DNA of 34,398 nucleotides from an uncultured Schwartzia sp. (GTDB lineage: Bacteria > Bacillota > Negativicutes > Selenomonadales > Selenomonadaceae): contig CAJPUA010000001.1 of the NCBI GenBank assembly GCA_905373705.1, forward strand, positions 1-34,398, in the 5' to 3' direction. How positions within the stretch are numbered: the first letter of the stretch is position 1; every line of letters begins with the position of its first letter. Position numbers and translations under genes: made by a program. Shown piece by piece: positions 1-34,398 of this stretch. The notes under the pieces were generated by a model. It worked only from the letters and a program-made list of their open reading frames with translations. It was not told where the DNA came from and ran no database searches.

Positions 1-70
1 AGCTGTCGTCATTATTGATGCAGCAAAACGCGAAGCGACACTGTAGTACCGAAATCTTCTGGAACCAAGA

Positions 71-96
71 GGGGCCTCAACATTCGTTGGGGCCCC
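71..96 (-). terminator. Candidate terminator hairpin after the leader operon
   Basis: An 11-bp stem (71-81 pairing with 86-96, one T-G position) with a 4-nt loop lies 7 nt beyond the stop of the 103-726 gene. The tail on the minus strand (TCTTGGTTCC) is only weakly U-rich. Confidence 0.4.
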
Positions 97-102
97 CGCT
101 TG

Positions 103-726
103 TTAGAACGTAAACAGCACAAGACAGAGAATCGACAGGAAAGACATCAAAGAGAGAGCGACCTGAAGCCTCAGTTGGCCATTGCCATCCGTGACGCCAA
201 GTCTTGCGTTGCGTTTCATCGTCGCCATAAGGTCCATGACGTTGCCCAAGAGGAACGGGCTGGAACACAAGAGGAATATCCAACCTGACGGCACATTCAG
301 AAACCAGCTGACAATGCCACTAAAGCCGCTTTGCGGAAGCGACAGCCAGAAGGGATATCGGCCGCTTCCCATAACGTATCCAGCGTTCAGACATGCTGCA
401 CATAGCAGAACCAAAACGCTCATCATCAAACCCCACGAACGCCAAAGAAATCCTCTGTTTTTGATGGCGGCGATCTCGTCGGATTTCTCCCTTACGGCTT
501 CGCTGATCTCTTTCAGGGCAAACTGTGCAGCCCCCTTAGCAACTCTTTCAACGTCTTGAAGCCGTTCGACGTGACGATTGTCATAGAACTCATTCACGAG
601 AATGATGTACCACATCGAGTCTTCCTTAGCCAGGTTCAACACGTCGCCAAAACGGGAAAAACGGGCTATTTCCTCCTCCGTAGGAGGGCGTTTGTAGAGC
701 TCTTGGAAGAATTCGTCGCGTGTCAC
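103..726 (-). CDS. Hypothetical multi-pass membrane protein, last gene of the leader operon (occupies the TraM position)
   Basis: 207-aa ORF. Its GTG start overlaps the upstream stop (GTGA at 723-726). A charged soluble N-terminal half is followed by hydrophobic segments (WGLMMSVLVLLCAACLNAGYV, IVSWFLNVPSGWIFLLCSSPFLLG, ALSLMSFLSILCLVLFTF). No family recognised. Confidence 0.6.
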   Translation of the reverse strand: MTRDEFFQELYKRPPTEEEIARFSRFGDVLNLAKEDSMWYIILVNEFYDNRHVERLQDVERVAKGAAQFALKEISEAVREKSDEIAAIKNRGFLWRSWGLMMSVLVLLCAACLNAGYVMGSGRYPFWLSLPQSGFSGIVSWFLNVPSGWIFLLCSSPFLLGNVMDLMATMKRNARLGVTDGNGQLRLQVALSLMSFLSILCLVLFTF

Positions 727-1454
727 TCTACGGCCTCCTTGTCTTCAATGTTTTTGAAAACTACGTCGAACGTTTCCTTAACAACCCTCAACCAGCGTTC
801 AAGCACGGTCCGCATCCCAAGTTTTAGGCCTTTAGGCAGCTTCTCTATTGTTACCTCGTCCGTATAGAATTTGTCTGCGATGAGGTCATTCAGGTTGGGG
901 AATGTGAGTTGACAACCCCCACGTTGAGAGATGATCTCGTGCAGGTCCTCATTCGTGTGATAGAAAGAAAACTCCTCCTCTTTGCCGAAGTAAAGGTTGA
1001 GGACAGGATAGACCACAGCGCTTTTCATCGTATCCATGAAGGAACGGAGTAAAGTAACGGAGTCCTTGTTCCTATTCATCACCCAAAACACCTTGAAGAT
1101 CACGTCCAGATTGCCGTTTCCTACGTTCTGATCGAGCAACGTTCCTTGCGTCTGGACCCCAAGGTTGGAGGCTGCCATCGAGTTGATGAGTACGTGCTGT
1201 GCCTTCGTGCTGTCTATCTCATCAACGAGGTCCATCCATCCTGTGTCATCTTCACCGAGAGGAATCCCCTGAACAATGATACCTGACGTGTTCTTGTACA
1301 GGCGACCAACATCGGGATTGCTCGTGTCCGTTTCGACAAGGAGTAGCGTGTCCTTGGGGAACGCCTTTCTAAAATAATCGACTAGTGCCATGCAGACCAT
1401 GCTCTTTCCCGTACCGCCCTTGCTGCCACCCACATAGACAAGGTTTTTTCTCAT
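723..1454 (-). CDS. traL: TraL-like P-loop (ParA/MinD-type deviant Walker A) relaxosome accessory ATPase
   Basis: 243 aa. N-terminal VYVGGSKGGTGKS Walker A. Size and layout match my memory of RP4 TraL (241 aa). ATGA overlap with the upstream gene at 1451-1454. Confidence 0.75.
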   Translation of the reverse strand: MRKNLVYVGGSKGGTGKSMVCMALVDYFRKAFPKDTLLLVETDTSNPDVGRLYKNTSGIIVQGIPLGEDDTGWMDLVDEIDSTKAQHVLINSMAASNLGVQTQGTLLDQNVGNGNLDVIFKVFWVMNRNKDSVTLLRSFMDTMKSAVVYPVLNLYFGKEEEFSFYHTNEDLHEIISQRGGCQLTFPNLNDLIADKFYTDEVTIEKLPKGLKLGMRTVLERWLRVVKETFDVVFKNIEDKEAVE

Positions 1455-1747
1455 CGCGACTCCTCCTGCTTATTTTCTTGTGTCATATCCTGTTTTTTCG
1501 AGTACTTCCGCCAGGCTCTGGCAAAGCTTTCATAGCTGCCAAGCTTCACGCCAGTCTTGATCAAGAAGTTATAGACGTGCTTTCTGGCAAGGCCGAAACA
1601 CTTCAGCCTCTCCAGGTTAAGACGGACGAATTCATCTGTAGAAACAAAGCCGTCACCGACTAAATAATCATTCTCTCGCATGTGTTCCTCAAGTGCATCC
1701 AACGCTTTCTCCGCCTGTTCCAAGTTTACAAGGATTCTTTTGCTCAA
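1451..1747 (-). CDS. TraK-like small oriT-binding protein, paralog of 1784-2227
   Basis: 98 aa. The segment FGLARKHVYNFLIKTGVKLGSYESFARAWRKY parallels YGVSRRAIYDSLRGAGLQLGSFKSFSDSWRRA in the neighbouring gene, and the VTIWEHMRETGKVKFSYETFRSHARRH region of RP4 TraK as I recall it. Confidence 0.6.
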   Translation of the reverse strand: MSKRILVNLEQAEKALDALEEHMRENDYLVGDGFVSTDEFVRLNLERLKCFGLARKHVYNFLIKTGVKLGSYESFARAWRKYSKKQDMTQENKQEESR

Positions 1748-1783
1748 ACCTTTACCTCCTAGCCCAGGGAGCAGGGAGCTGGC

Positions 1784-2227
1784 CTAAATCTTGAACCGTT
1801 TTGCCCCTGTTTCCGGGTCAAAGAACATCTCTGTCCCATACGGATTTTTTCCGAGAGGCTTAAACCTGCGATCTGCCGGTAGGCCGTCTTTCTCCTGTTC
1901 CGATTGCTCGAGCGTTGACTGTACGGAAACCCCCTGTTGTTTGCGTTCGGACTCAGGACATTGTTTTGGCTGTTCAGCCATCACTGTAGCTTGTGTGGTA
2001 TCGCAGGCTTTAGCCTCCGCTCTGCGCCAGCTGTCCGAGAACGACTTAAAGCTTCCAAGTTGTAGACCTGCCCCTCGTAAGCTGTCATAGATGGCTCTTC
2101 GTGACACACCGTATCTTTGTAGTTTAGCGATGTTCATGCTGACAAACTCAGATACGGATATGCTGAACTCATCCTGCCTCCGGTCCAGTTCGGACAGCGC
2201 CTCTTTTGCCTCTTTCATGCGAATCAT
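1784..2227 (-). CDS. traK: TraK-like oriT-binding protein with an extended C-terminal tail
   Basis: 147 aa with the same TraK-like N-terminal motif as above. A GGAGG RBS lies 7 nt upstream of the ATG. It is the first canonical gene of the traK-traL leader operon. Confidence 0.6.
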   Translation of the reverse strand: MIRMKEAKEALSELDRRQDEFSISVSEFVSMNIAKLQRYGVSRRAIYDSLRGAGLQLGSFKSFSDSWRRAEAKACDTTQATVMAEQPKQCPESERKQQGVSVQSTLEQSEQEKDGLPADRRFKPLGKNPYGTEMFFDPETGAKRFKI

Positions 2228-2254
2228 GATATGCCTCCAAGGAAACCCATGCCT

Positions 2255-3550
2255 TTAGGCATGGGAGGAATTGGAAACGTATCGGTATCCGTTTCCGTGC
2301 TGCAACCGATAGCAGTACCGCCACGACACGCCATCGTTTTCTCCGACCCGAAAACTCCCCGAAGTGCGTACTACGACGCGTCCTACATGGATGCCAGCAT
2401 GTCCGCCCTTCGGGACGTCCGCACGGACAAAGTCGCCGGTACGAAATCCATGAACGGTCCGTGCCGCCTTGGGGCCGGTCCGCGGGAAGCCGTACTTGTC
2501 CATCCGGCACATTTGCCGACACCCGCGTCCCATCGCCTTGATGGAGAGAGCTTCCACATCGGGGTCCAGCCTAACAGCACCTCCCGTTTCCCCGACACAG
2601 GCGGCATCAATCCAGTGTTTCTTGGGGTAGCCCTGCGTCGTCCGGTTGAACTTCGTCCGGCCGCCGGTCCCCAACTCGACCGGAAGTCCTGTCCCCTTCA
2701 GTCGTTCCAGCAATGCCCACCGTGTCGCATTGACCGCGGCAATATCCCTCAATGGAGCTTTCGCCTGCGAGAGCACTCTGCGCAGTATCTCCGGCTTCCG
2801 GCGCAGAAACTCCTCGATCGGGCGGTTGCCCTTCCGTTGATTGCAGGTGTGGCACGCCAACGTGAGGTTCGATACACGGTCGGAACCACCCTTCGACTTA
2901 GGGACAATATGCTCCACTTCCAGCGGGACGTCCTCTGTGCCACAGTAGACACACCTGTGGCCCCATTTCTCCAGCAGGTATTCTCGGACTTCATACCCGT
3001 ACAGCGTTCCCTGCTGGTACTCCGCCCCTGATACTTCAGGGTCCTGCATCGTCTGGGTGTCGAACTTCACCAGCTCCATGGAGAGGCCGCCGACGTGAGC
3101 CCATCGGCAGAGCCGACGTACCCACGTAACCACGTTGTTCACCCGGCTTTCGAGGCTTGGTGGCAGCCAGCCCTCCTTCCGCCCCCGATTCAAGAACCGT
3201 GCAGGGCGATAGCGTGTCTTTCGTGATCGCCGCGCACAGCGTACCACACGACGTTTGTCCAGCTTGGCTTTCACCTCCAGTCCTCGATGCTGTAGTTCCG
3301 AAGCCCAAACTACCTCGTCCATACCACGGCGCCTCATCACAAGTGCCATTCCGGTCGTCCTACTGCCGGGGTCAATCTTGACCTTGACCTCGGTTGGTTC
3401 CTCGGCGGGTGCATACTTCAGGATGATCGTGAACGGCACACGGCGGAAGACTGCCGCCTTCCCCTTTCTCAGAAGCTCTCTTGCCCGTGCCGGATGGCAT
3501 GGTGAGAGCGGTTTCCTGTTCGTATCCAGCACAAAGACTCGCATTACCAT
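2255..3550 (-). CDS. iscB: IscB-type RNA-guided endonuclease (PLMP domain, split RuvC, HNH insert, C-terminal beta-rich domain)
   Basis: 431 aa. Motifs in order, residue numbers by my own count: PLMP-like RKPLSPCHPARARELLRKGKA; RuvC-I KIDPGSRTTGMAL (D60); Arg-rich bridge helix KRRVVRCARRSRKTRYRPARFLNR; RuvC-II LSMELVKFD (E159); HNH CVYCG...LEVEHIVPKSKGGSDRVSNLTLACHTCNQRKGN (H214, N237); RuvC-III KKHWIDAACVG (H312, D315). Confidence 0.9.
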   Translation of the reverse strand: MVMRVFVLDTNRKPLSPCHPARARELLRKGKAAVFRRVPFTIILKYAPAEEPTEVKVKIDPGSRTTGMALVMRRRGMDEVVWASELQHRGLEVKAKLDKRRVVRCARRSRKTRYRPARFLNRGRKEGWLPPSLESRVNNVVTWVRRLCRWAHVGGLSMELVKFDTQTMQDPEVSGAEYQQGTLYGYEVREYLLEKWGHRCVYCGTEDVPLEVEHIVPKSKGGSDRVSNLTLACHTCNQRKGNRPIEEFLRRKPEILRRVLSQAKAPLRDIAAVNATRWALLERLKGTGLPVELGTGGRTKFNRTTQGYPKKHWIDAACVGETGGAVRLDPDVEALSIKAMGRGCRQMCRMDKYGFPRTGPKAARTVHGFRTGDFVRADVPKGGHAGIHVGRVVVRTSGSFRVGENDGVSWRYCYRLQHGNGYRYVSNSSHA

Positions 3551-3848
3551 GGGATTACTCCCCTTCCTGCCCCAAGAGGGCGTGATGTTCTCCTCGCCAA
3601 TGTATGCAGCCGGCTCCTCCCCGTATCGGAGAGCGGCCCTGGCGTTCGGCGCTTTGCCTTTCGCTTTCTTCGCCAGGGCCTTGCAGGGTCCGGGACTGGA
3701 GATGCATCCCGGAGGGCGTCTTTACGACCTGCTGCATACGTAGCCCGATATTGCTGGGCTAAGGCTGGTCAGTCCGGCTCAGGGATTCTTCCCCAAGCTC
3801 ACCGCCTTCAACGGTAGGCAACTGACTTTTGACGCCATCACTTCCGTT
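3551..3848 (-). ncRNA. Candidate omega-RNA (IscB guide/scaffold RNA); 5' boundary uncertain
   Basis: GC-rich region directly 5' of iscB on the same strand, without a credible ORF. Nested helices: 3635-3644/3671-3680 (10 bp), 3690-3695/3707-3712 (6 bp) and 3617-3623/3627-3633 (7 bp). The last contains one pair that is G-U only if the minus strand is the RNA. A long-range 9-bp pairing (3602-3610/3731-3739) closes the domain. Confidence 0.5.
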
Positions 3849-3854
3849 CCCTTC

Positions 3855-3884
3855 ATTAAATGACGCAATATGGTTATATTTCAA
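3855..3884 (-). promoter_or_regulatory. Candidate sigma70-type promoter for the omega-RNA/iscB/leader operon
   Basis: On the minus strand: TTGAAA (3884-3879), an 18-nt spacer, then TTTAAT (3860-3855). It sits in the AT-rich block just upstream of the GC-rich structured region. Confidence 0.3.
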
Positions 3885-4025
3885 CGCCATTGCTTCTCGA
3901 TTCGACATAAAATAACGCGATAACGAGCTTTTTTTGCTAAAATCAGCGCGATCATTGCCAGAAATGCAGGGCAATTTACATACCGTTATACACCTGAATC
4001 GTTGTGTCATGGGGTTTTTTAGACA

Positions 4026-4088
4026 ATATTTCTTTTATAGGAACGAAATTTCTTTTTAAAAGAAATATAGTCCTTCTGAAAGAAATAT
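4026..4088. promoter_or_regulatory. 63-bp dyad-symmetric operator with four half-sites
   Basis: ATATTTCTTTT (4026-4036), AAATTTCTTTT (4046-4056), centre T at 4057, AAAAGAAATAT (4058-4068) and GAAAGAAATAT (4078-4088). The inner pair is a perfect 9-bp-arm palindrome (4048-4066). Same-orientation copies are 20 bp apart. Confidence 0.55.
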
Positions 4089-4099
4089 GTTCCGTTTTT

Positions 4100-4330
4100 T
4101 CCCGCAGGACGAGGGGTTAGCATTATCATGCTGGAGAGTTACATCGTAGTATACGGGACAAGCAGGCGCTTGTCCGACAAACCCACTGACGTGGGTTGCC
4201 GTCCAAGCGCCTATAAGTGCAATCGGCGGCCCTTTGGGCCTTCTCTCGCACTATGCTTGCCAGGGCGCGCTGCCCTGGACCTGGCAGGAGGGCGTTCCCC
4301 CCTGCATTCCCAATCCGCCGTTTCGTTGAA
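4100..4330. other. Candidate oriT (origin of transfer) region
   Basis: It lies between the divergent traK-side and mobC/traI-side operons, as in RP4. Hairpins: 4119-4132 (5 bp), 4156-4163/4168-4175 (8 bp), 4180-4186/4191-4197 (7 bp), 4260-4266/4272-4278 (7 bp). Nic-like strings: GTCCTG|C on the minus strand (4110-4105), 8 nt from the 4119-4132 repeat, and ATAAGTGCAATCGG (4213-4226). Confidence 0.45.
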
Positions 4331-4357
4331 CGGCCCAAGAAGGAAAGACGCGCAGAG

Positions 4358-4675
4358 ATGACACAAAAGAAACAAGACCTCAGACCGAGGCGCATATACG
4401 CAAGGCTCACAGTTGATGAGTATGCTGACCTGAAAGAACAGGCCGACGCCTCCGCGCTGTCCCTCTCAGAGTATGTCCGGCGCAGAGTATTCGGGCGACG
4501 TGTCACCTCTAAGGTAGACCTGCGCGTCCTGGCAGAACTCAGGCGGCTGGGCGGACTGATGAAACACGTCCATAACGAAACAGGCGGGATATATAGTGAG
4601 GACACGAGGGACGCTATTCAGGCTCTGACGGCTTGTGCGCGTGGCATCGAGCGAAAGTTGAGTGAAGGACATTGA
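4358..4675 (+). CDS. mobC: MobC/TraJ-type ribbon-helix-helix relaxosome accessory protein
   Basis: 105 aa from ATG 4358 (the formal ORF opens at 4217). MobC-family pattern RRIYARLTVDEYADLKEQADASALSLSEYVRRRV. The stop overlaps the relaxase TTG start (TTGA, 4672-4675). Confidence 0.8.
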   Translation: MTQKKQDLRPRRIYARLTVDEYADLKEQADASALSLSEYVRRRVFGRRVTSKVDLRVLAELRRLGGLMKHVHNETGGIYSEDTRDAIQALTACARGIERKLSEGH

Positions 4676-6603
4676 TCGCCAAGATACCTCCAGGACGCCA
4701 GGACGGGAAAAGCAGCTTTCGAGATCTTGGGAACTACATCCTGGGAAGGACCGGGCACAGCGCCGGGTCAGTCCTGCATGTCGGGTTTCAGAACTTGACG
4801 ACGGATGGAACGGCTGCACTGGAGATGGAGGTCCTGGCGTCGGAGAATACGCGGAGCAGAAACCCCGTCTTTCACTTCATTCTCTCATGGCGTGAGATGG
4901 AGCGCCCGACCTCTGAGCAGGTCGATGAGGCGGTGCAGATTGCTCTCAAGGAACTGGAACTGGAGGGGTGTCAGGCGCTGTGGGCGTTGCAGGGTGACAC
5001 GGAGAACCAGCACGTACACGTGATGGTGAACCGCATTGATCCTGAAACGTATCGGGCTATCCAGCCCGCAGGAAACTGGACGAAGAAGGCGCTGGAGAGG
5101 GCGGCTCGGAAGATTGAGCTGGCACAGGGCTGGGAGGTAGAACGCTCAGGTCGTTATGATGTCAATCCAGACGGCACGATTCAGGAGAAGGGCAATGGTA
5201 ATGAACCGAAGCTGACGCAGAAGTCGCGGGACATCGAGGCCCATACGGGAGCAAAGAGTTGGGAACGCTTGATAAAAGAACAGGTCGGAGCGGTTCTGAG
5301 GGACGCCATAAGCTGGGGCGAGTTACACCAAAAGCTAGGCGAGCTTGGGCTCTCTATGGAACGTAAGGGGAGTGGAGCTGTTCTGCTATGGAATGACGGA
5401 AGTGAGCAACATGCCGTAAAGGTATCTACGGTAGATCGCGGAAGCAGCCTGAAGAAACTTGAGGCACGCCTGGGAGCGTTTCAGGAGCGTGAGCATGACG
5501 TCGGGGTCAGCTTGGCACCGCAGATGAAGCCAGTAGAGGTCGTAGCAGCAGAACCCGCTCTGGAGCGCACGTGGAAAGGCTACATACACAACAGGACAGA
5601 GTACTTTAAGGCAAAGTCTGCAGCCCGTGCGACCCTCCGAGAGCGACAGAAACAGGAGTACATAAAGCTCTTGAAATGCCAGAAGCAGGAACGGCAGAAG
5701 CTCTTCCAGAACGAAAACTGGAAGGGACGAGGGAAAGAACTAAACCAACGCCGGAGCCTTCTAGCGGCAAAACACGCCCGCGAGAAGCTAAACCAGCGGG
5801 ACGCACAGAAGCTGGAAACGGAGAACCTGAACTCACGCTTCCTGCAACACTTTCCGAGCTTCAAGACCTGGCTGAAAGAGCAGGAAGACGGAATGCTCTT
5901 CCTGAAGTACCGCTACCCTGGTCAGACGGTGCTGACGTCACCGTCACAGAAGCAAAATGTTGCAGCTAAGGTAATTGACATCCGCAACTTCATGGCATTC
6001 CGTTCTCTGAACGGCACGGCATGGGGCCGGGAGAAAGGCGTGGCGGATTTCGTCGATGCCGGACGGCGAATCGTGATGCGCAAGGGAATGGACCATGACG
6101 AAACGGCTATCCTGGCGGCGCTGCAACTGGCGAACCAGAAGTGGGGAACGGCTCAAATCAACGGCACGGATGAGGAATATCGCCGGATGTGCGTACAGGT
6201 GGCCATCCAACACAACCTTCGAATCGCCAATCCAGATTTGAGAAAGGCCGTTGAGGAGGGAAGAAAGCGAATGTACGAGGGACAGAGCAGGGGAGGGAGT
6301 ACGGAGGTTGCAAAGGACCTTTTGACGCGGTATGCCAAGGCCGTTGGTGCGGAGCGTTTCCGCATTGTTGTAACAGAATTCACGCGGGAGGGAACACAAG
6401 CCTTCGTGCTGGATCGTCGAAACGGCGGCCTTAGCGGCAAGACGCTGGAGGAACTTCAGGGTCGTGTGCGTCAGTTGGAGGGGTATGCGGCGGAGCACAA
6501 AAACATCAACATCACGCCCATGAGCAAGGATAAGCACCATATCCTCGTGGACGATCTTACAGCACGGAGCAGGAGAAGGAGGACCTTCCGGAGGGCGCCC
6601 TGA
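4672..6603 (+). CDS. traI: TraI/MobA(P)-type conjugative relaxase
   Basis: 643 aa. The N-terminus MIAKIPPGR...[10 protein letters not shown] parallels RP4 TraI MIAKHVPMR...VKYITD, with Tyr at position 22. His-rich motif [19 protein letters not shown] start coupled to mobC. Confidence 0.9.
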
Positions 6604-6968
6604 TGCGGGAAAAGGGGAACGGCCCGCTCTACATGAAAGTGCTGGATATATGGGAGCCATACAGAATACTGAGGCTCCACACCCCGGAAAGGGATTTGGG
6701 CAAGTACGGCCGGATGCGCCTGAAGTATCTGGAGGAGTGGAAGGTCCGGAAGGCGTTGGAGCTGGGCGAGGAGATTCTGGTCCATTGCCTGGAGGTTCAG
6801 GATCGGGCGAAGGAGATGAAGCGGGAGATCATGGACCAGTGGCGGGAACAGAACCCGTCGGACGGAACGATGGAGTGGGTGCAGAGGGCCGAGATGCAGG
6901 ACGCGGAAGCGGAGCGCCTCGTCCTGGACACGGTGGTCTGGCCGGAGGCCAGCACGGCCAGCAGCTGA
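6603..6968 (+). CDS. TnpV-like small protein, translationally coupled to the relaxase
   Basis: 121 aa. The ATG overlaps the traI stop (TGATG). [16 protein letters not shown]...[25 protein letters not shown] fits the TnpV-family pattern as I remember it. Third-codon positions are overwhelmingly G/C in this frame. Confidence 0.7.
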
Positions 6969-9900
6969 CACTAAACTTTGGGCTTGGAGAGCCGGATACG
7001 ACGCCCCAGGCTCCTCAAGCCCTTGAGCCGGAACCGGAGCTGGAAGCTCCAAAGGTATCGGAGGAAAAGCCTAAGGGGCCGGAGCAGCAGCGCGTCAACT
7101 ATCGCATAACGAACGATGCTCTAGGCACCGGTGGCGCAAAGACGAAGTATACCCGCAACGTGGAGGCCATCCGCACCCTGCAGCGCATCGAGGGCGAGGG
7201 CAGGCTGGCCACCTCCGAGGAACAGGAGGTCCTAGCGCAGTACGTCGGCTGGGGCGGTCTGCCCCAAGTCTTTGATGAAAAAAATGAGAGCTGGGGTAAG
7301 GAATACGCTGAACTGAAGGACCTTCTCTCCAAGGAAGAATACACGGCGGCCCGCGCCTCAACTCTCAACGCGCACTACACCTCTCCTACCGTTGTGAAGG
7401 CGATCTACGGCACCTTGGAGCGGATGGGCCTCAGCTCTGGCAATATCCTGGAGCCTGCCTGCGGCACGGGAAACTTCTTCGGCCTCGTACCGGAGAGCAT
7501 GGCGGGCGCGAAGCTCTACGGCGTCGAGCTGGATGGCATCACGGGTCGTATCGCCCGCCAACTCTATCAAGAGGCGGACATCACCGTCGATGGCTACGAG
7601 CGGACCCACTTTCCGGATAACTTCTTCGATGCGGCCGTCGGGAATGTTCCGTTCGGGGCCTACCGGGTCGCGGATCCCAAGTATGACAGGCATGGCTTTG
7701 CAATCCATGACTATTTCTTCGCCAAGACCCTCGACCAGGTGCGGCCGGGCGGTGTCGTTGCCTTTGTAACCTCCAAGGGGACCCTGGACAAAGCCAACCC
7801 CTCGGTCCGGCAGTACATTGCCCGTCGGGCCGAGCTCCTGGGGGCCGTTCGGCTTCCTAACACCGCCTTCAAAGCCAATGCCGGAACCGAAGTCACGACC
7901 GACATCCTCTTCCTCCAGAAGCGGGACCACATCATCGACGACGTTCAGCCCGAATGGCTGCATACCTTTAACAACGCCGAGGGCGTGCCCGTCAATAACT
8001 ATTTCCTCCAGCACCCGGAAATGATGCTGGGGACGATGGCCTTTGATTCCTCGATGTACGGCAACGAGAGGGAGACGACCTGCAACCCCATCGAGGGGGC
8101 CGACCTCGCCGAGCAGCTCCACGAAGCGATGGGGAACATCCAGGGGAAGATAACGGCCCGCGAGCAGGAGATACGGGAGCAGTACAAGGAGACGATCCCC
8201 GCCGACCCATCGGTTCGTAACTACAGCTACACCCTGGTGGACGGGGAGTTGTACTACCGTGAAAACTCGGTCATGTACAAGCCGGATCTTCCCCGGACCT
8301 CTATGGAGCGCGCCAAGGATATGGTCGGGTTGCGGGACCTCTGCCGCGCCGTCATCGACGCCCAGATGGATGGGGTGTCCGACGAGGACCTGCAGGTCCT
8401 TCAGAAGGACCTCAACCAAGCCTATGACCGTTTCGTCCGGCGACACAGTCGCATCAACGATGCGGCGAGCGCCCGCGCCTTCGACGAGGACAGTTCCTAT
8501 TACCTGCTGTGCGCGCTGGAGAACCTGGACGAAGACCGCCGTTTCATCGGGAAGTCGGACATGTTCACGAAGCGGACCATTCGACAGAACGTCGTCCCGA
8601 CCTCCGCCGAAACGCCGCAGGAGGCCCTGCTGCTGTCGATCTCCGAGAAGGCCCACGTGGACATGGACTACATGGCGTCGCTCACGGGTCGGACAGAGGA
8701 GGAGTTGGTGCAGGAGCTTCGGGGCGCGATATTTCGCGTTCCGGACCGTGTGGAGCCGGAAACGGGAAGGGCGGTCTATCAGACGGCGGACGAGTATCTG
8801 TCCGGCAACGTCCGCGAGAAGCTGGAGACGGCACGGCGCTATGCTGAACGGGAACCGGAACTCTTTGCCGGCAACGTGAAGGCGCTGGAGGAAGCACAGC
8901 CGAAGCCGCTGACGGCAGGGGAGATCGACGTGCGCCTCGGAGCGACGTGGGTAGACCCGAAGTACGTACAGGCGTTCATGTTCGAGCTTTTGCAAACCCC
9001 ACCGTACATGACATACACCATCAAGGTTTCCTACTCGCCGATGTCTGCCACATGGAACATATCGAACAAGGTGAAAGACGTCGGGAACGTCCGGGCGAAC
9101 ACGACCTACGGCACGAAGGACCTCAACGCCTACAAGATAATAGAGGAAACGCTGAACCTCAAAACCGTACGGATATACAAGGCTGTTGAAGGGCCGGACG
9201 GCAAGGAAACTCGCGTCCTGGACCCGGAGGCTACCGCCCTGGCGCAGCAGAAGCAGGAGGAGATCAAGGAAAAGTTCAGGGAGTGGGTCTTCCGGGACCC
9301 AAAGCGTCGGGACGTCCTCGTCGAGGAGTACAACAGGCGTTTCAACTCCACACGCGCGCGGGAATACGACGGGACGCATCTCCGGTTTGGGGGCATCAAC
9401 CCGGAGATTGTCCTGCGGGAGCACCAGAAGAACGCCATTGCGCGCATCCTCTACGGCGGAAATACGCTGCTGGCGCACGAGGTGGGGGCAGGCAAGACCT
9501 ACGAGATGGTCGCTGCAGCGATGGAGGGGAAGCGCCTGGGTTTGGCACACAAGAGCCTCTTCGTCGTCCCGAACCACCTAACGGAACAGATGGCCACGGA
9601 AACTCTGCGGCTCTATCCAGGGGCGAACGTCCTGGTGGCCACGAAGAAGGACTTTGAAACAAAGAACCGCAAGAAGTTCTGCGCCCGCATCGCCACCGGC
9701 GACTACGATGCCATCGTCATCGGCCATTCCCAGTTCGAGAAAATCCCACTCTCCCTGGAGCGGCAGGCCCGGTTCGTCGAGGAGCAGATCGAGGAGATTA
9801 CTCAGGGCATCGAGGAGCTGAAAGAGGAACGGGGTGAGCGCTGGACCATCAAGCAGATGGAGAAGTCCAAGAAGGACCTGGAGGCGAAGCTGACAAAGCT

Positions 9901-23479: not shown

Positions 23480-24598
23480 TCAACGCTCCCTCGTAATCAA
23501 GACCTTTGACTTGCCGGCAATCATTACGGCTTTCCTGCTCATCAGGCGATCTATGATATAGAGCTCGCCTTTAACACGATAGTTCACCAGCTTTTGCTGC
23601 TTGCCCTCGTAGAACAGCACGACCGGAGCCTCCAGCGCTCTGTACTTTTTAGGCATCTGGATATAGGTCTTTGTGCCGTCGTCAAAGACCCGGACGGGCT
23701 TCCAGTCCACCTTGCCGGACACCTTGTACCCGAAGAACAGATTCTCAGCAGACATCGCGTAACTGGCTTCAAGCATCGTTTCCTTCTTTTGCGCTGCCCG
23801 ATTGGCCGCAATGAATGCCCCCCACTCACTCGCCACATCCTGTGGGTAACTGAAGCATATCGAAGGAATGTAGTCTGAGTTCGAGGAAATGAGGTCCAGA
23901 TTATAAGTGCGCCGGTCGGTCATCACTAGGAGATTGGTGCTGATGTCCGGCATCAAAGGCTTGATCACAACATGGATTACCTCCGCGCCGTCCGCCCCAC
24001 TCTTTGCCGGGGATATCTGCCAGCGCACCGTATCTCCAGCGTGAACAGCGTTCACCTTCTCTCCGACCTGAAGGGCGATGTCCGTGACGCGATTCGGGCG
24101 GCAAACAATGCGAGGAATGACACTGCCATAGGCAAATGTTACTGCACCGTTCTGCCCGTGCATAGGCTGTATCACGTTGCTTGCTTTTGCAAACTCCTGC
24201 ACCAATTCCAAAGCGCGCTCGTCGACCTGCCGGAGTGTCAGATCTTCCTGAACATCCAGCCAGTGCTGAGCCCTTTGAATCTCACGAATCTCCTCAGGCG
24301 TCAATTCTTCCTCATCGTCCAAAAGCTGTTGCTCGACAGGTATCTGTACTTCACCGGAGGCTGTCACCCACTTCACGCTTGAGACATCCATAGATGCAGG
24401 CAGAATATCCGGATACTCCTTAACCAGTTCTTGGAAACGCTCGTCAATATTGAATTGCTTCTCTTCCTTTTCCAATGCTGCCTGGGCTGACTGCGGTCGT
24501 GGCCGTGGCCGTGGCTTGGGGATCACCGTGGAAGCAAAAACAGCATCTGAACAAAGAAGGACTGCCAACACAAAGACAGTCATAAAGAACCTTCTCAA
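23480..24598 (-). CDS. trbG: TrbG/VirB9 T4SS outer-membrane core protein
   Basis: 372 aa with a signal peptide. VirB9-like blocks RIVCRPNRVTDIALQVGEKV, VIKPLMPDISTNLLVMTDRRTYNLDL and VRVFDDGTKTYIQMP. Confidence 0.8.
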   Translation of the reverse strand: MRRFFMTVFVLAVLLCSDAVFASTVIPKPRPRPRPQSAQAALEKEEKQFNIDERFQELVKEYPDILPASMDVSSVKWVTASGEVQIPVEQQLLDDEEELTPEEIREIQRAQHWLDVQEDLTLRQVDERALELVQEFAKASNVIQPMHGQNGAVTFAYGSVIPRIVCRPNRVTDIALQVGEKVNAVHAGDTVRWQISPAKSGADGAEVIHVVIKPLMPDISTNLLVMTDRRTYNLDLISSNSDYIPSICFSYPQDVASEWGAFIAANRAAQKKETMLEASYAMSAENLFFGYKVSGKVDWKPVRVFDDGTKTYIQMPKKYRALEAPVVLFYEGKQQKLVNYRVKGELYIIDRLMSRKAVMIAGKSKVLITRER

Positions 24599-24620
24599 AG
24601 AAAAAACCTCCTCAACCCTC

Positions 24621-25325
24621 TCAATTAGCGAGCTTTTCAGTAATATGGAAGTCAGATATAAAGACTCCCAGCGGGTTGCGCATGATATCTTTGATCTCTG
24701 TCGGTGGATTCATTTCAATAACGAACATGCCCTTGAAGAAACGCTCTCCGACGTACTTCTCATGCTCATACACCTTCTCCGACCATTCCGCTTGCCACGT
24801 CATGTTGCTCTCCGGCGTGGCGCGCAGCACAGACTGAAGTGTCACGTCCACAACGAAGTCCTTCTTCGTCAACGGATTGTTGTCGAGATAGTACTCATCG
24901 AGCTTCATTTGTGCTTGGGAGTTCTGCGCAATGCTGTCGTAGGTTTTCGTTAGCATCGCAAGTAGAGCTGTCTGGTCCGCGTAGATACTCCGCATGTTCG
25001 TGATGAAATCTGCGATTCGCGCCATGATGATGCGATCATCCGTCACTGCAGCAGGCTCGACTGGCGCAACAGCCATCTGGTATCCGTGTTGATCTACCTG
25101 AACGATGAACGGGACAACCTTCACTGTCTGTGCCATCCACAGCACTGTAGCGATCGACACAGCCAACAGGAGCAACATCAGGAATGCCACACGCCGCCAG
25201 GAAGCCGCGTTTTTTGCCAATCGCTCATAACGGTCGTTGTATTCCTTCTTTCCAATGGCGTAGGGATTTGCCGAGTCATACGCCTCGTGCAGATCAATCG
25301 CCTTTTCAACCTTTTCATTAGGCAT
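24621..25325 (-). CDS. trbF: TrbF/VirB8 T4SS inner-membrane protein
   Basis: 234 aa. Short cytoplasmic N-terminus, one TM (VAFLMLLLLAVSIATVLWMA) and a periplasmic domain. The position between trbL and trbG matches the P-type order. Confidence 0.75.
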   Translation of the reverse strand: MPNEKVEKAIDLHEAYDSANPYAIGKKEYNDRYERLAKNAASWRRVAFLMLLLLAVSIATVLWMAQTVKVVPFIVQVDQHGYQMAVAPVEPAAVTDDRIIMARIADFITNMRSIYADQTALLAMLTKTYDSIAQNSQAQMKLDEYYLDNNPLTKKDFVVDVTLQSVLRATPESNMTWQAEWSEKVYEHEKYVGERFFKGMFVIEMNPPTEIKDIMRNPLGVFISDFHITEKLAN

Positions 25326-32715: not shown

Positions 32716-33390
32716 CTATGCCATCTTCCAAGTTGTTTCCAAATCATCTGCCAAAAGGCGTTTCCATGCAGTCCAAACCTTCGAATAAAATGTTAAAAAA
32801 GGTTGCCGCTGTCTTGCGTCCATACCGCTCCACCACGGACGCCCTTCAATAATGTTGTTGATGATATGCTCATTGCGCGGCCATCGTCCTGCTATAGGAT
32901 ACTGTTTATTAGATAGTATCTGTTCAATATCCTTTACAGTACGAGTTGTTCCAAAACTGTTCTTGATTACTGCTACTTGTGCCGGGTATTTCCCCTGGGC
33001 CACGGCAAAATCGTAAACAACCGGTAAATTGGAAATACTAAAGAGGTCGCCTAACGTCGGTACAAGTACAATATCAGCAAACGAAATCGCTTCCTCTGTA
33101 ACCTGATCTAGTGCAACAGGGCAGTCTATAACAAAAAGATCAAAGTCCAAGTCCGCATCTCCCTTATCTAAGCGGTCTTTGATCTCAGGTTTTATTTTGA
33201 AGTTATATTTGTCCCTTACCAAATCCATTGCATCAAAGAAGTTTTTTTGATCGTCCACATCAACACACAACACGCGCATCCCACGTTCTGCAGCAGTTTG
33301 AGCCATGATGATCGAAGCTGTAGTCTTGCCAACTCCGCCCTTCCTGTTGATGCAGCATACCGCTAGTTTTTCCATGTTTTTCACCGCCAT
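32716..33390 (-). CDS. parA: ParA-family partition ATPase
   Basis: 224 aa (alternative start ATG 33375, MEKLAV...). Deviant Walker A CINRKGGVGKTT. VLCVDVDDQ and LFVIDCP motifs. Confidence 0.85.
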   Translation of the reverse strand: MAVKNMEKLAVCCINRKGGVGKTTASIIMAQTAAERGMRVLCVDVDDQKNFFDAMDLVRDKYNFKIKPEIKDRLDKGDADLDFDLFVIDCPVALDQVTEEAISFADIVLVPTLGDLFSISNLPVVYDFAVAQGKYPAQVAVIKNSFGTTRTVKDIEQILSNKQYPIAGRWPRNEHIINNIIEGRPWWSGMDARQRQPFLTFYSKVWTAWKRLLADDLETTWKMA

Positions 33391-34343: not shown

Positions 34344-34398
34344 GAATAAAAGGATGCTTTGGGGCGAATAAAAGGATGCTTTGGGGCGAATAAAAGGA
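34344..34398 (+). repeat. Tandem 22-bp direct repeats (iterons), truncated by the window edge
   Basis: GAATAAAAGGATGCTTTGGGGC at 34344-34365 and 34366-34387 (identical). A third copy starts at 34388 and runs off the window. Confidence 0.8.

Follow-up and report, generated by a model that had tools for sequence, protein, structure and literature searches.

The closest described relatives of the element studied here are the IscB insertion sequences of the IS200/IS605 family, in which the omegaRNA is bounded by the right end (RE) of the element, the guide lies outside the element, and the 3' side of iscB forms the left end (LE), next to the target-adjacent motif (TAM) (Meers et al. 2023, PMC10055086). 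In the case of ISGst5 the TAM is TTCAT, which reads ATGAA in the sense of iscB. IscB elements are strongly biased towards co-orientation with upstream genes, and the synthesis of their omegaRNA must begin outside the element; about 1.5% of iscB genes are found near tnpA, and about 98% of iscB loci are non-autonomous (PMC10055086). We found no mention of start codons in the work of Meers et al. (PMC10055086). A gene-drive activity in multicopy plasmids was shown for the related nuclease TnpB (Mears et al. 2025, preprint, PMC11870625). Here, we analysed an IscB locus in a 34,398-nt stretch of DNA from an uncultured Schwartzia sp. (contig CAJPUA010000001.1), referred to below as the window. The window is a conjugative plasmid-like element, as it encodes a whole P-type type IV secretion system (T4SS), a coupling protein, TopA and ParA. 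Most probably, the locus is a non-autonomous IS200/IS605-family IscB element that inserted 5' of the ATGA starting the first of the traK/traL/traM-position genes of a MOBP plasmid, and it is a selfish passenger there rather than a plasmid function. The kind of element is known, and the place is new. Its parts are as follows:

2228..3826, minus strand: complete non-autonomous IscB insertion sequence of 1599 bp, from RE (start of the omegaRNA scaffold, 3826) to the end of LE (2228)
2255..3550, minus strand: iscB, 431 aa, intact (Pfam RRXRR, E 5e-69; HNH, 1e-13)
3582..3826, minus strand: omegaRNA scaffold of the HEARO type (Rfam RF02033, 104.2 bits against a gathering score of 83, E 1.2e-20, full model 1-211, not truncated)
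3827..3842, minus strand: predicted guide segment AGTGATGGCGTCAAAA, plasmid DNA directly outside RE, placed by the scaffold start
2234..2277, minus strand: two-tier hairpin of the left end, with an inner and an outer stem
2224..2227, minus strand: putative TAM and target motif ATGA (TCAT on the plus strand), which abuts LE and whose ATG is the start codon of the traK-position gene
GTGATGGCGTCAAAA followed by ATGA: predicted target of the window IscB-omegaRNA, from the logic of guide and TAM

The protein encoded by iscB has the layout of an IscB nuclease, with a PLMP N-terminus, a split RuvC domain, an HNH insert and a C-terminal TAM-interaction region, and its matches in PDB are TbaIscB, HfmIscB and OgeuIscB. 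Residues D60, E159, H214, N228, H312 and D315 are invariant among 20 homologues, their roles being assigned by motif and not by structure. Judged by a dN/dS of 0.10-0.24 against its relatives, iscB is under purifying selection. The omegaRNA probably extends beyond its scaffold as far as the iscB start. Of the 2.1 kb that separate the traK-position gene from nikA, iscB and the omegaRNA together take up about 1.6 kb, and the element is richer in GC than its flanks (59.9% vs. about 50%). None of the 34 tested open reading frames (ORFs) of the window contains a Y1_Tnp domain, and no Y1 tnpA was present next to the clade IscB genes in the gene calls around about 15 loci; therefore, the window element is a non-autonomous form. 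The first-pass annotation, made from the letters of the window, had described a tnpA-less IS200/IS605-type IscB unit with no Y1 TnpA in the window. The Pfam and Rfam matches, the element ends and the count of 0/34 agree with it, and its anatomy holds in full: iscB with its upstream RNA, the 27-nt spacer, the GGAGG and the hairpin at 2246-2265. It had placed the unit between oriT and traK. The unit does lie in the traK-nikA gap, but its exact seat, at 2228..3826, is the start codon of the traK-position gene.

The discrete nature of the element became evident from its absence in close relatives. These were found by a look-up of the window NikA protein, and are contigs of human gut and oral metagenomes with an identical NikA; below, contigs and loci outside the window bear L numbers. 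Six of the contigs with 100%-identical NikA (L002, L003, L005, L006, L007, L009) have no iscB, and their traK-nikA gap is about 520 bp, as compared to 2130 bp in the window. Hence, traK, oriT and nikA are contiguous in these six, a comparison which the first-pass annotation had proposed as a check, and which sets the boundaries of the insertion at 2228..3826. By blastn, window positions 1401-2225 and 3827-5000 are collinear with the element-free contigs at 93-98% identity; the homology ends at 2225 and restarts at 3827, and the DNA between is extra. An insertion allele of the window type (98.4-100% identity) occurs in at least six samples. Clearly, the IscB element is discrete and polymorphic among near-identical plasmids.

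Since RE is the first base of the omegaRNA scaffold, the predicted guide of the window element is the former 5' untranslated region (5'UTR) of a plasmid gene. In element-free relatives the same DNA constitutes the 5'UTR and the first annotated codons of the traK-position gene. With the guide length set at 16 nt, an assumption from published IscB systems, AGTGATGGCGTCAAAA occurs once in the window and has a perfect match in 6/7 of the relatives that are empty at the window site, where the next bases are ATGGCA and not ATGA. At this site, element-free relatives read GTCAAAA|ATGGCAGAACGAAAAAAGATTCGC, with the codons ATG GCA GAA CGA AAA AAG ATT CGC, and the window reads GTCAAAA|element|ATGATTCGC, with the codons ATG ATT CGC. 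Thus, the five codons (AERKK) found next to the ATG in every element-free relative are missing from the traK-position gene of the window, and this loss converts ATGG into the canonical ATGA. The missing 15-nt segment is bordered by the near-repeats AAAAATG and AAAAAAG, so the element may have inserted into a slippage variant, or the deletion may have occurred after the insertion. The junction GGCGTCAAAAATGATTCGC would be either the precise empty site or a donor joint. The junction flanks in the window, GTCAAAA| and |ATGATTC, contain no target duplication, and the element has no terminal inverted repeats.

The same ends as those of the window element were found in 10 related copies. At the right end, every aligned copy begins with GTCA(G/A)(T/C)TACC after an unrelated 5' flank, and the first omegaRNA stem begins 8-9 nt from the element end. 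The left end common to the copies is ...UCCAAUUCCUCC-stem-U(A/G)A-stem-GGU(U/C)UCCUUGGAG(G), followed by 6 to 8 nt and then by ATGA. The ATGA stands directly after the element in 11/11 clade copies, usually as the start codon of a co-oriented gene; a constant short motif, the putative TAM, thus abuts LE throughout the clade. The TAM of OgeuIscB is NWRRNA, and ATGAAA-like sequences fit it. Clean filled and empty sites were provided by L035 (150 kb) and L040 (122 kb), which are related, phage-like, and encode a UvsX-like recombinase, a tail-fibre N-terminus, NrdD and HU. They carry 81%-identical IscB elements (L035 5728-7331, L040 5724-7333) at adjacent but different start codons flanking the same two-gene block, and each of them is empty at the site of the other. 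The empty sites read ...GAAGAA|ATGATCATC and ...TTTGTG|ATGAGAGAT, the ATG being the start codon of the next gene in both cases. A different interpretation of the window junction was considered and ruled out. In it, the tail GGAGGCAT(A/C)TCATGA would stem from a donor, having come along with the element in an illegitimate recombination or an off-target homing event, and the TAM would lie within the 17 bp that were replaced (ATGGCA); but all copies end in ATGA, and clean filled/empty pairs exist.

The left end also explains the features that had made the unit look fitted to the plasmid. The GC-rich inner stem of its hairpin (2246-2253/2258-2265) holds the TAA stop codon of iscB (2257..2255) in the loop, and in the outer stem UUUCCAA (2277..2271) pairs with UUGGAGG (2240..2234), which includes the Shine-Dalgarno (SD) sequence GGAGG (2238..2234) located 6 nt before the ATG. 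The single-sequence fold of the window left end has a z of -2.98. RNAalifold with 10 copies gave 15 pairs, and four inner-stem pairs showed compensatory changes on both sides. In the 10-copy alignment the outer stem, which pairs (U/C)CUCCAA with UUGGAG(G), is invariant, and GGAG(G) lies 6-8 nt upstream of the element end in 10/10 copies aligned for the left-end fold. Because the same left end recurs in clade copies wherever they are sited, the GGAGG, the hairpin and the 27-nt spacing are, by this comparison, parts of the element, and the ATG belongs to the plasmid. Tight spacing and a ribosome-binding site had been taken earlier as signs of integration into plasmid biology; as intrinsic properties of the element left end, they lose that meaning.

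The sites occupied by the clade are biased towards start codons. At least 7/10 independent clade sites are the start codons of co-oriented genes, and 9/313 (2.9%) of the ATGA sites in the window are start codons, which gives a binomial P of about 2e-9 for the observed bias. Among the 31 ATGA sites at which an insertion would leave all genes uninterrupted, nine are start codons, the expectation is 29%, and P is about 0.01 (hand calculation). Either the element targets ATGA sites at start codons, or only such insertions survive in compact mobile genomes. The co-orientation of iscB with the gene whose start codon is used follows automatically from the geometry of the element and from a TAM that contains ATG. 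For distant IMG/VR loci, a crude test, which counted co-oriented ORFs starting just past iscB, gave 34/61 as compared to 35% at random positions; it is weak and was not used as evidence.

Two more independent insertions were found in this plasmid family. In L008, an IscB element of 94% identity lies in reverse orientation with respect to that of the window, with its 3' end fused to the nikA start codon (ATGA), and the traK-position gene is intact (156 aa). L047 is a plasmid 70-82% identical to the window over the T4SS genes, and has an IscB element (80% amino acid identity) between virB8 and virB9 (4723-6347), co-oriented with them and with 27 nt from the iscB stop to the virB9 ATG. The corresponding site of the window (24598-24621) is empty, with a 22-bp intergenic gap. 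The window virB9 homologue begins with TTGA, not ATGA. The L008 element (4795-6347, equivalent to window 4261|4358) is rearranged: about 96 bp of the oriT region (window 4262-4357) are missing beside the omegaRNA end, and the 32 nt between two GTTTCC repeats are lost. As this 32-nt loss took the left-end hairpin and the stop codon, the iscB gene of L008 (447 aa) runs into nikA. The guide of L008, TCGCACTATGCTTGCC, is probably without a target, since AGGGCG follows the guide sequence in normal plasmids.

Beyond this plasmid family, a search of 5.8 billion proteins found the closest IscB proteins (77-89% identity) in phage-like and other mobile elements. In another conjugative element (L044), an IscB copy is flanked by the coupling-protein gene and a parA-like gene. 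A sister element of 1676 bp occurs with 100% identity in L037 and L038, two contexts that are otherwise unrelated, and the identity ends right after ATGA. Mobile-element-like contigs with clade IscB genes include L037 (methylases, RNase H), L048 (integrase, UvrD) and L034 (Csf3 gene). A comparison of the neighbouring genes with PHROGs gave phage-type matches in L040 only (the UvsX-like recombinase and the tail-fibre N-terminus). In species-representative genomes, the best IscB matches (Chloroflexota, Acidobacteriota and others) do not exceed 68% identity and are uninformative on the window site. An exact-pattern scan for the left end gave zero matches in IMG/VR and two in JGI metagenomes; in IMG/VR, a single-protein scan found one fragment and an alignment-based scan 79 distant loci.

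Several loci showed further peculiarities. In L034 (1502-4717, a short contig), the closest IscB relative (89%) is followed directly by a gene for 500 aa, a PAPS-reductase-like gene and a gene for Csf3 (type IV CRISPR-associated). L037 (5652-7412) and L049 (4633-6488) have two IscB variants at one insertion site in related backbones. A single block that runs from the upstream flank through nt 178 of the element is 91% identical, and the remaining element with the downstream flank 78%, a mosaic suggestive of recombination or co-conversion of elements that share a site. The iscB gene of L049 stops early. Distant IscB relatives (50-68% identity; L012-L033, L060-L138) also end right before ATGA, ATGG or GTGA, and two of them (L017, MAELYDVIIIGSGPA; L019, MEPFTTLTGLVAPL) abut the apparent true N-termini of housekeeping genes. 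An SD sequence in the final 16 nt is absent in most of the distant relatives, and present in L067, L076, L087, L113 and L130.

The insertion separates the traK-position gene from its native SD, which is now 1.6 kb upstream. The scan found a promoter-like site ahead of the guide (4176..4148, minus strand) and none inside the element. In RP4, divergent promoters, including PtraK, are located within oriT (PMC8483437). The first-pass annotation had described iscB as co-oriented and probably co-transcribed with the traK-side operon. The co-orientation holds, and co-transcription is, on sequence grounds, very probable, because the element has no internal promoter-like site and the host promoter region is upstream of the guide; the displacement of the native SD fits this as well. 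The only terminator-like match between iscB and the next gene is the hairpin at 2246-2265, which has a weak T-tract. The position of the L047 copy, between virB8 and virB9, would argue for read-through past the left-end hairpin.

These observations can be combined into the following scenario. The element would have been delivered by a Y1 TnpA acting in trans, which would recognise TCAT and the end hairpins on single-stranded DNA (ssDNA). The surviving insertions would be those at start codons, since the TAM contains ATG, and iscB would thereby come to be co-oriented with the gene downstream. The plasmid's own traK-side promoter in oriT would then transcribe the guide, the omegaRNA, iscB and the downstream operon. 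The SD of the element would substitute for the displaced native one, the operon staying expressed and the insertion being nearly neutral; sequestered in the outer stem of the hairpin, this SD is possibly translationally coupled to iscB. IscB-omegaRNA would cut element-free copies of the site (guide match plus ATGA), and recombination at the cut would bring the element back or carry it further, so that it would act as a gene drive on plasmid copies or on relatives in the same cell.

Several points weigh against parts of this scenario. TnpA was found neither in the window nor in the neighbourhood of any clade member, and we infer the transposition step from the exact ends of the element. The window and its relatives do not form a clean filled/empty pair, as 15 nt are missing and the relatives carry ATGG, not ATGA; when an element-free allele with ATGATTCGC, i.e. 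with the 15-nt deletion, was looked up, only window-type alleles turned up. If the TAM is strictly ATGA, the common element-free allele would escape cutting, which weakens the gene-drive step for the window copy; moreover, the guide length and processing were taken from other IscB systems. The left-end hairpin scores as a weak terminator, so the read-through into the operon is presumed. Similarly, the SD function and the translational coupling are suggested by position, and the outer stem is invariant, i.e. without support from covariation.

The first-pass annotation had offered two readings, an ordinary insertion sequence that landed next to oriT and a domesticated RNA-guided nuclease. The former is favoured by the relatives without the unit and by the copies at other sites and in other elements, and the latter is not. 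According to the domestication reading, IscB would have become a plasmid function: placed first in the leading operon, it would be made soon after entry into recipients and would serve in plasmid competition, in anti-defence or in homing. The co-orientation, the tight spacing and the ribosome-binding site seem to speak for it, but the spacing, the ribosome-binding site and the hairpin travel with the element to phage-like contigs, to a T4SS operon and to a place beside a coupling-protein gene. IscB is intact and under purifying selection, which is equally expected of a selfish nuclease. The insertion allele persists in at least six samples; however, six plasmids with identical NikA do without the element. 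The guide matches sister plasmids that lack the element, and hence some inter-plasmid antagonism is conceivable, but a guide that equals the flank is the property of every mobile IscB element (PMC10055086). In addition, both transposon ends and the TAM are retained, and the leading position of the operon in transfer is presumed. We therefore consider domestication highly improbable. The other half of the former reading, that the conjugative single-strandedness of the oriT region, as a substrate of IS200/IS605 transposition, put the element at this place, also appears unlikely. It draws on the use of ssDNA by IS200/IS605 TnpA (PMC10055086), and on the fact that 2/3 of the independent insertions in the plasmid family are at the start codons flanking the 520-bp oriT region. 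However, as the copies that flank oriT have opposite strands, no more than one of the two can be in the transferred strand; the third lies in the T4SS operon at a distance of about 14 kb, and clade relatives occupy start codons beside a coupling-protein gene and in phage-like or other elements without an oriT. Moreover, the entire plasmid, not oriT alone, is single-stranded during transfer, and three events are too few to claim a hotspot. The idea that proximity to oriT explains the site is thus not supported; the common denominator of the sites is the ATGA start codon.

The role of the transposase itself can also be questioned. The clade might spread only via IscB-made breaks and recombination between co-resident phages and plasmids, new sites being reached by illegitimate recombination, with no need of TnpA. 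Consistent with that, Y1 tnpA is near none of the approximately 15 clade loci, all of these loci are in mobile elements that meet their relatives by co-infection, and the junctions are irregular right next to the element (a loss of 15 nt in the window and of 96 nt in L008). The mosaic of L037 and L049 resembles co-conversion, and non-restorative homing was proposed for OMEGA systems (PMC13565253). Three features speak against it: the identical 1676-bp copies of L037 and L038, whose ends are exact to the base although their sites are unrelated, the clean insertions before ATGA without a donor flank, and a conserved covarying end hairpin, which is typical of TnpA substrates. We regard homing as the sole mode of spread as improbable; the exact ends, the clean insertions and the covarying hairpin point to a site-specific transposase for new sites, and homing may operate between homologous sites. 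A bolder extension of the preferred reading, a selfish IscB insertion, would be that this clade is specialised for the operons of phages and conjugative plasmids: its ATGA TAM would target start codons, the displaced 5'UTR and SD would become the guide, the left end would donate a hairpin-held SD coupled to iscB, the insertion would be phenotypically silent, and the nuclease would drive the element into co-resident copies that lack it, possibly without TnpA. We put this forward tentatively, as a possibility that is somewhat less probable than its negation. The operon-compatible design and the restriction to phages and conjugative elements are possibly a new aspect of IscB elements, as far as about 10 loci can tell.

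The plasmid genes around the element, and its oriT region, are the following:

1784..2227, minus strand: traK-position gene, 147 aa, whose ATG start codon adjoins the element left end
1451..1747, minus strand: 98-aa gene, paralogue of the traK-position gene (E 1e-15)
723..1454, minus strand: P-loop TraL/MobD-like gene, 243 aa (BLASTP vs. pTC-F14 MobD, E 2e-26)
103..726, minus strand: membrane protein in the TraM/MobE position, 207 aa (BLASTP vs. the N-terminus of pTC-F14 MobE, E 3e-5, weak, 36 aa aligned)
4358..4675, plus strand: nikA/mobB-like ribbon-helix-helix (RHH) gene (Pfam NikA-like, 1e-19)
4672..6603, plus strand: MOBP relaxase, C-terminally truncated in the window (Pfam Relaxase, TraI_middle, LPD7)
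3843..4357, no strand assigned: native oriT/promoter region, about 520 bp in element-free relatives, with large inverted repeats, a promoter-like site and nic-like motifs
4292..4282, minus strand: nic candidate CCCTCCTG|CCA, similar to RP4 and T-DNA borders
~4252-4262, plus strand: nic candidate CTATGCTTG|CC
4164-4212, plus strand: inverted repeat with 20-nt arms, followed by the nic candidate ATAAGTGC (4213-4220), resembling an RSF1010-type nic context though the relaxase is MOBP

The three nic candidates were proposed from reading the sequence. Among these motifs, at 4213-4292 on both strands, none contains an exact ATCCTG; pTC-F14 itself has ATCCTG on both strands. The best plasmid matches of the window relaxase are the TraI/MobA(P) proteins of IncQ-2 plasmids, e.g., MobA of pTC-F14 (36% identity over 98% of the query). 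It has 643 aa, as compared to 890-894 aa in its relatives, whose version includes a RepB primase domain, and a full-length 893-aa relaxase is encoded by L053, a contig with the same IscB insertion. In comparison with L002 (12210-13898), the window lacks 1.69 kb at 6563/6564, i.e. the C-terminal part of the primase region of the relaxase and a gene with a TnpV domain. The first gene of the operon gave no detectable alignment with MobC of pTC-F14, and hence "traK" is, at the level of sequence comparison, a label by position only. The earlier designation of this gene as traK-like can be kept with respect to its position, but not as a statement of similarity to MobC; the downstream P-loop gene is homologous to MobD/TraL. 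A megablast of window positions 1-6700 against PLSDB plasmids gave zero matches.

Synteny with IncP and IncQ-2 plasmids suggests that the traK side leads during transfer; the nic-like motifs and the comparison with pTC-F14 are ambiguous on this point. The early entry of the traK side is unnecessary for explaining the locus. The oriT region contains an inverted repeat with 31-nt arms built of AGAAATAT/ATATTTCT units (window 4022-4090). In L004 (~9750-9760), AT-rich (33% GC) chromosome-like DNA ending in a truncated gcpE/ispG gene is joined at window position ~4256, 6 bp from the deletion endpoint of L008 (4261/4262), and both points are at the foot of a palindrome (4260-4278). The joint of L004 could be a nic mark, a recombination hotspot or a chimeric assembly. 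As nic markers, the rearrangement junctions of L004 and L008 offer a suggestive coincidence only. At the other end of the window, a perfect 22-bp tandem repeat, GAATAAAAGGATGCTTTGGGGC, is present in 2.5 copies (34344-34398) and is cut by the window end; it resembles iterons or a partition site. The parA gene (32716..33390, minus strand) is about 1 kb away.

The features that would suggest an early nuclease owned by the plasmid (co-orientation, 27-nt spacing, ribosome-binding site and hairpin) are thus intrinsic to a mobile IscB element, which guards against the over-reading of similar loci. The locus provides a natural case of an IscB insertion sequence circulating among the conjugative plasmids and phage-like elements of human-associated microbiomes, with three independent insertions in one plasmid family and the operon structure preserved in each. 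If it is true that the clade donates an SD at start codons, this design would explain the survival of the element inside essential operons of compact mobile genomes, and an "operon-compatible cassette" would have evolved, analogous to splicing by IStrons. In that case, the locus would also be a natural model for testing an IscB-based gene drive between plasmids.

Of the systems described so far, the locus is most similar to ISGst5 of Geobacillus stearothermophilus. In both, the omegaRNA is upstream of iscB and bounded by RE, the guide is outside, and LE abuts the TAM (TTCAT there, TCAT here). As with IscB elements of the IS605 family in general, which are usually tnpA-less, transcribed from outside and co-oriented, its expected role is the cutting of the element-free site. 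Whereas ISGst5 occurs in multiple chromosomal copies in a genome that also encodes a TnpA, the window element is plasmid-borne and no TnpA is known for it. What distinguishes the window clade from ISGst5 is the GGAGG 6-8 nt from the left end inside the stop-codon hairpin, and the accumulation of insertions at start codons within the operons of plasmids and phage-like elements. With OgeuIscB (Altae-Tran et al. 2021; PDB 7UTN, 7XHT), the window IscB shares the protein architecture and a HEARO-type omegaRNA (E of the PDB match, about 2e-26), but the sequence similarity is distant only, the lengths differ (431 vs. 496 aa), and the window TAM is predicted from sequence. The surrounding plasmid genes resemble the IncP Tra1 core (traJ-traI/oriT/traK-traL-traM) and the mob regions of the IncQ-2 plasmids pTF-FC2 and pTC-F14 in that an RHH gene and a MOBP relaxase(-primase) gene diverge from a three- to four-gene operon; they differ in that the first gene of this operon has no detectable kinship with MobC/TraK and is duplicated. 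The IS605/TnpB gene drive (PMC11870625) is likewise based on a plasmid-borne IS200/605 nuclease whose guide records the insertion site and which would cut copies free of the insertion sequence. That drive was observed in laboratory plasmids, whereas here an IscB is found in a natural conjugative plasmid whose common element-free allele has ATGG in place of the ATGA of the clade. Finally, the location of a nuclease gene between conserved genes of a mobile element, its co-transcription with them and the low harm of the insertion are reminiscent of free-standing phage homing endonuclease genes and of IStrons. In contrast to these, target recognition by the window element would be RNA-guided from its flank, and the element has IS200/605 ends and no intron; where IStrons limit harm by splicing, the window element would do so by donating an SD.

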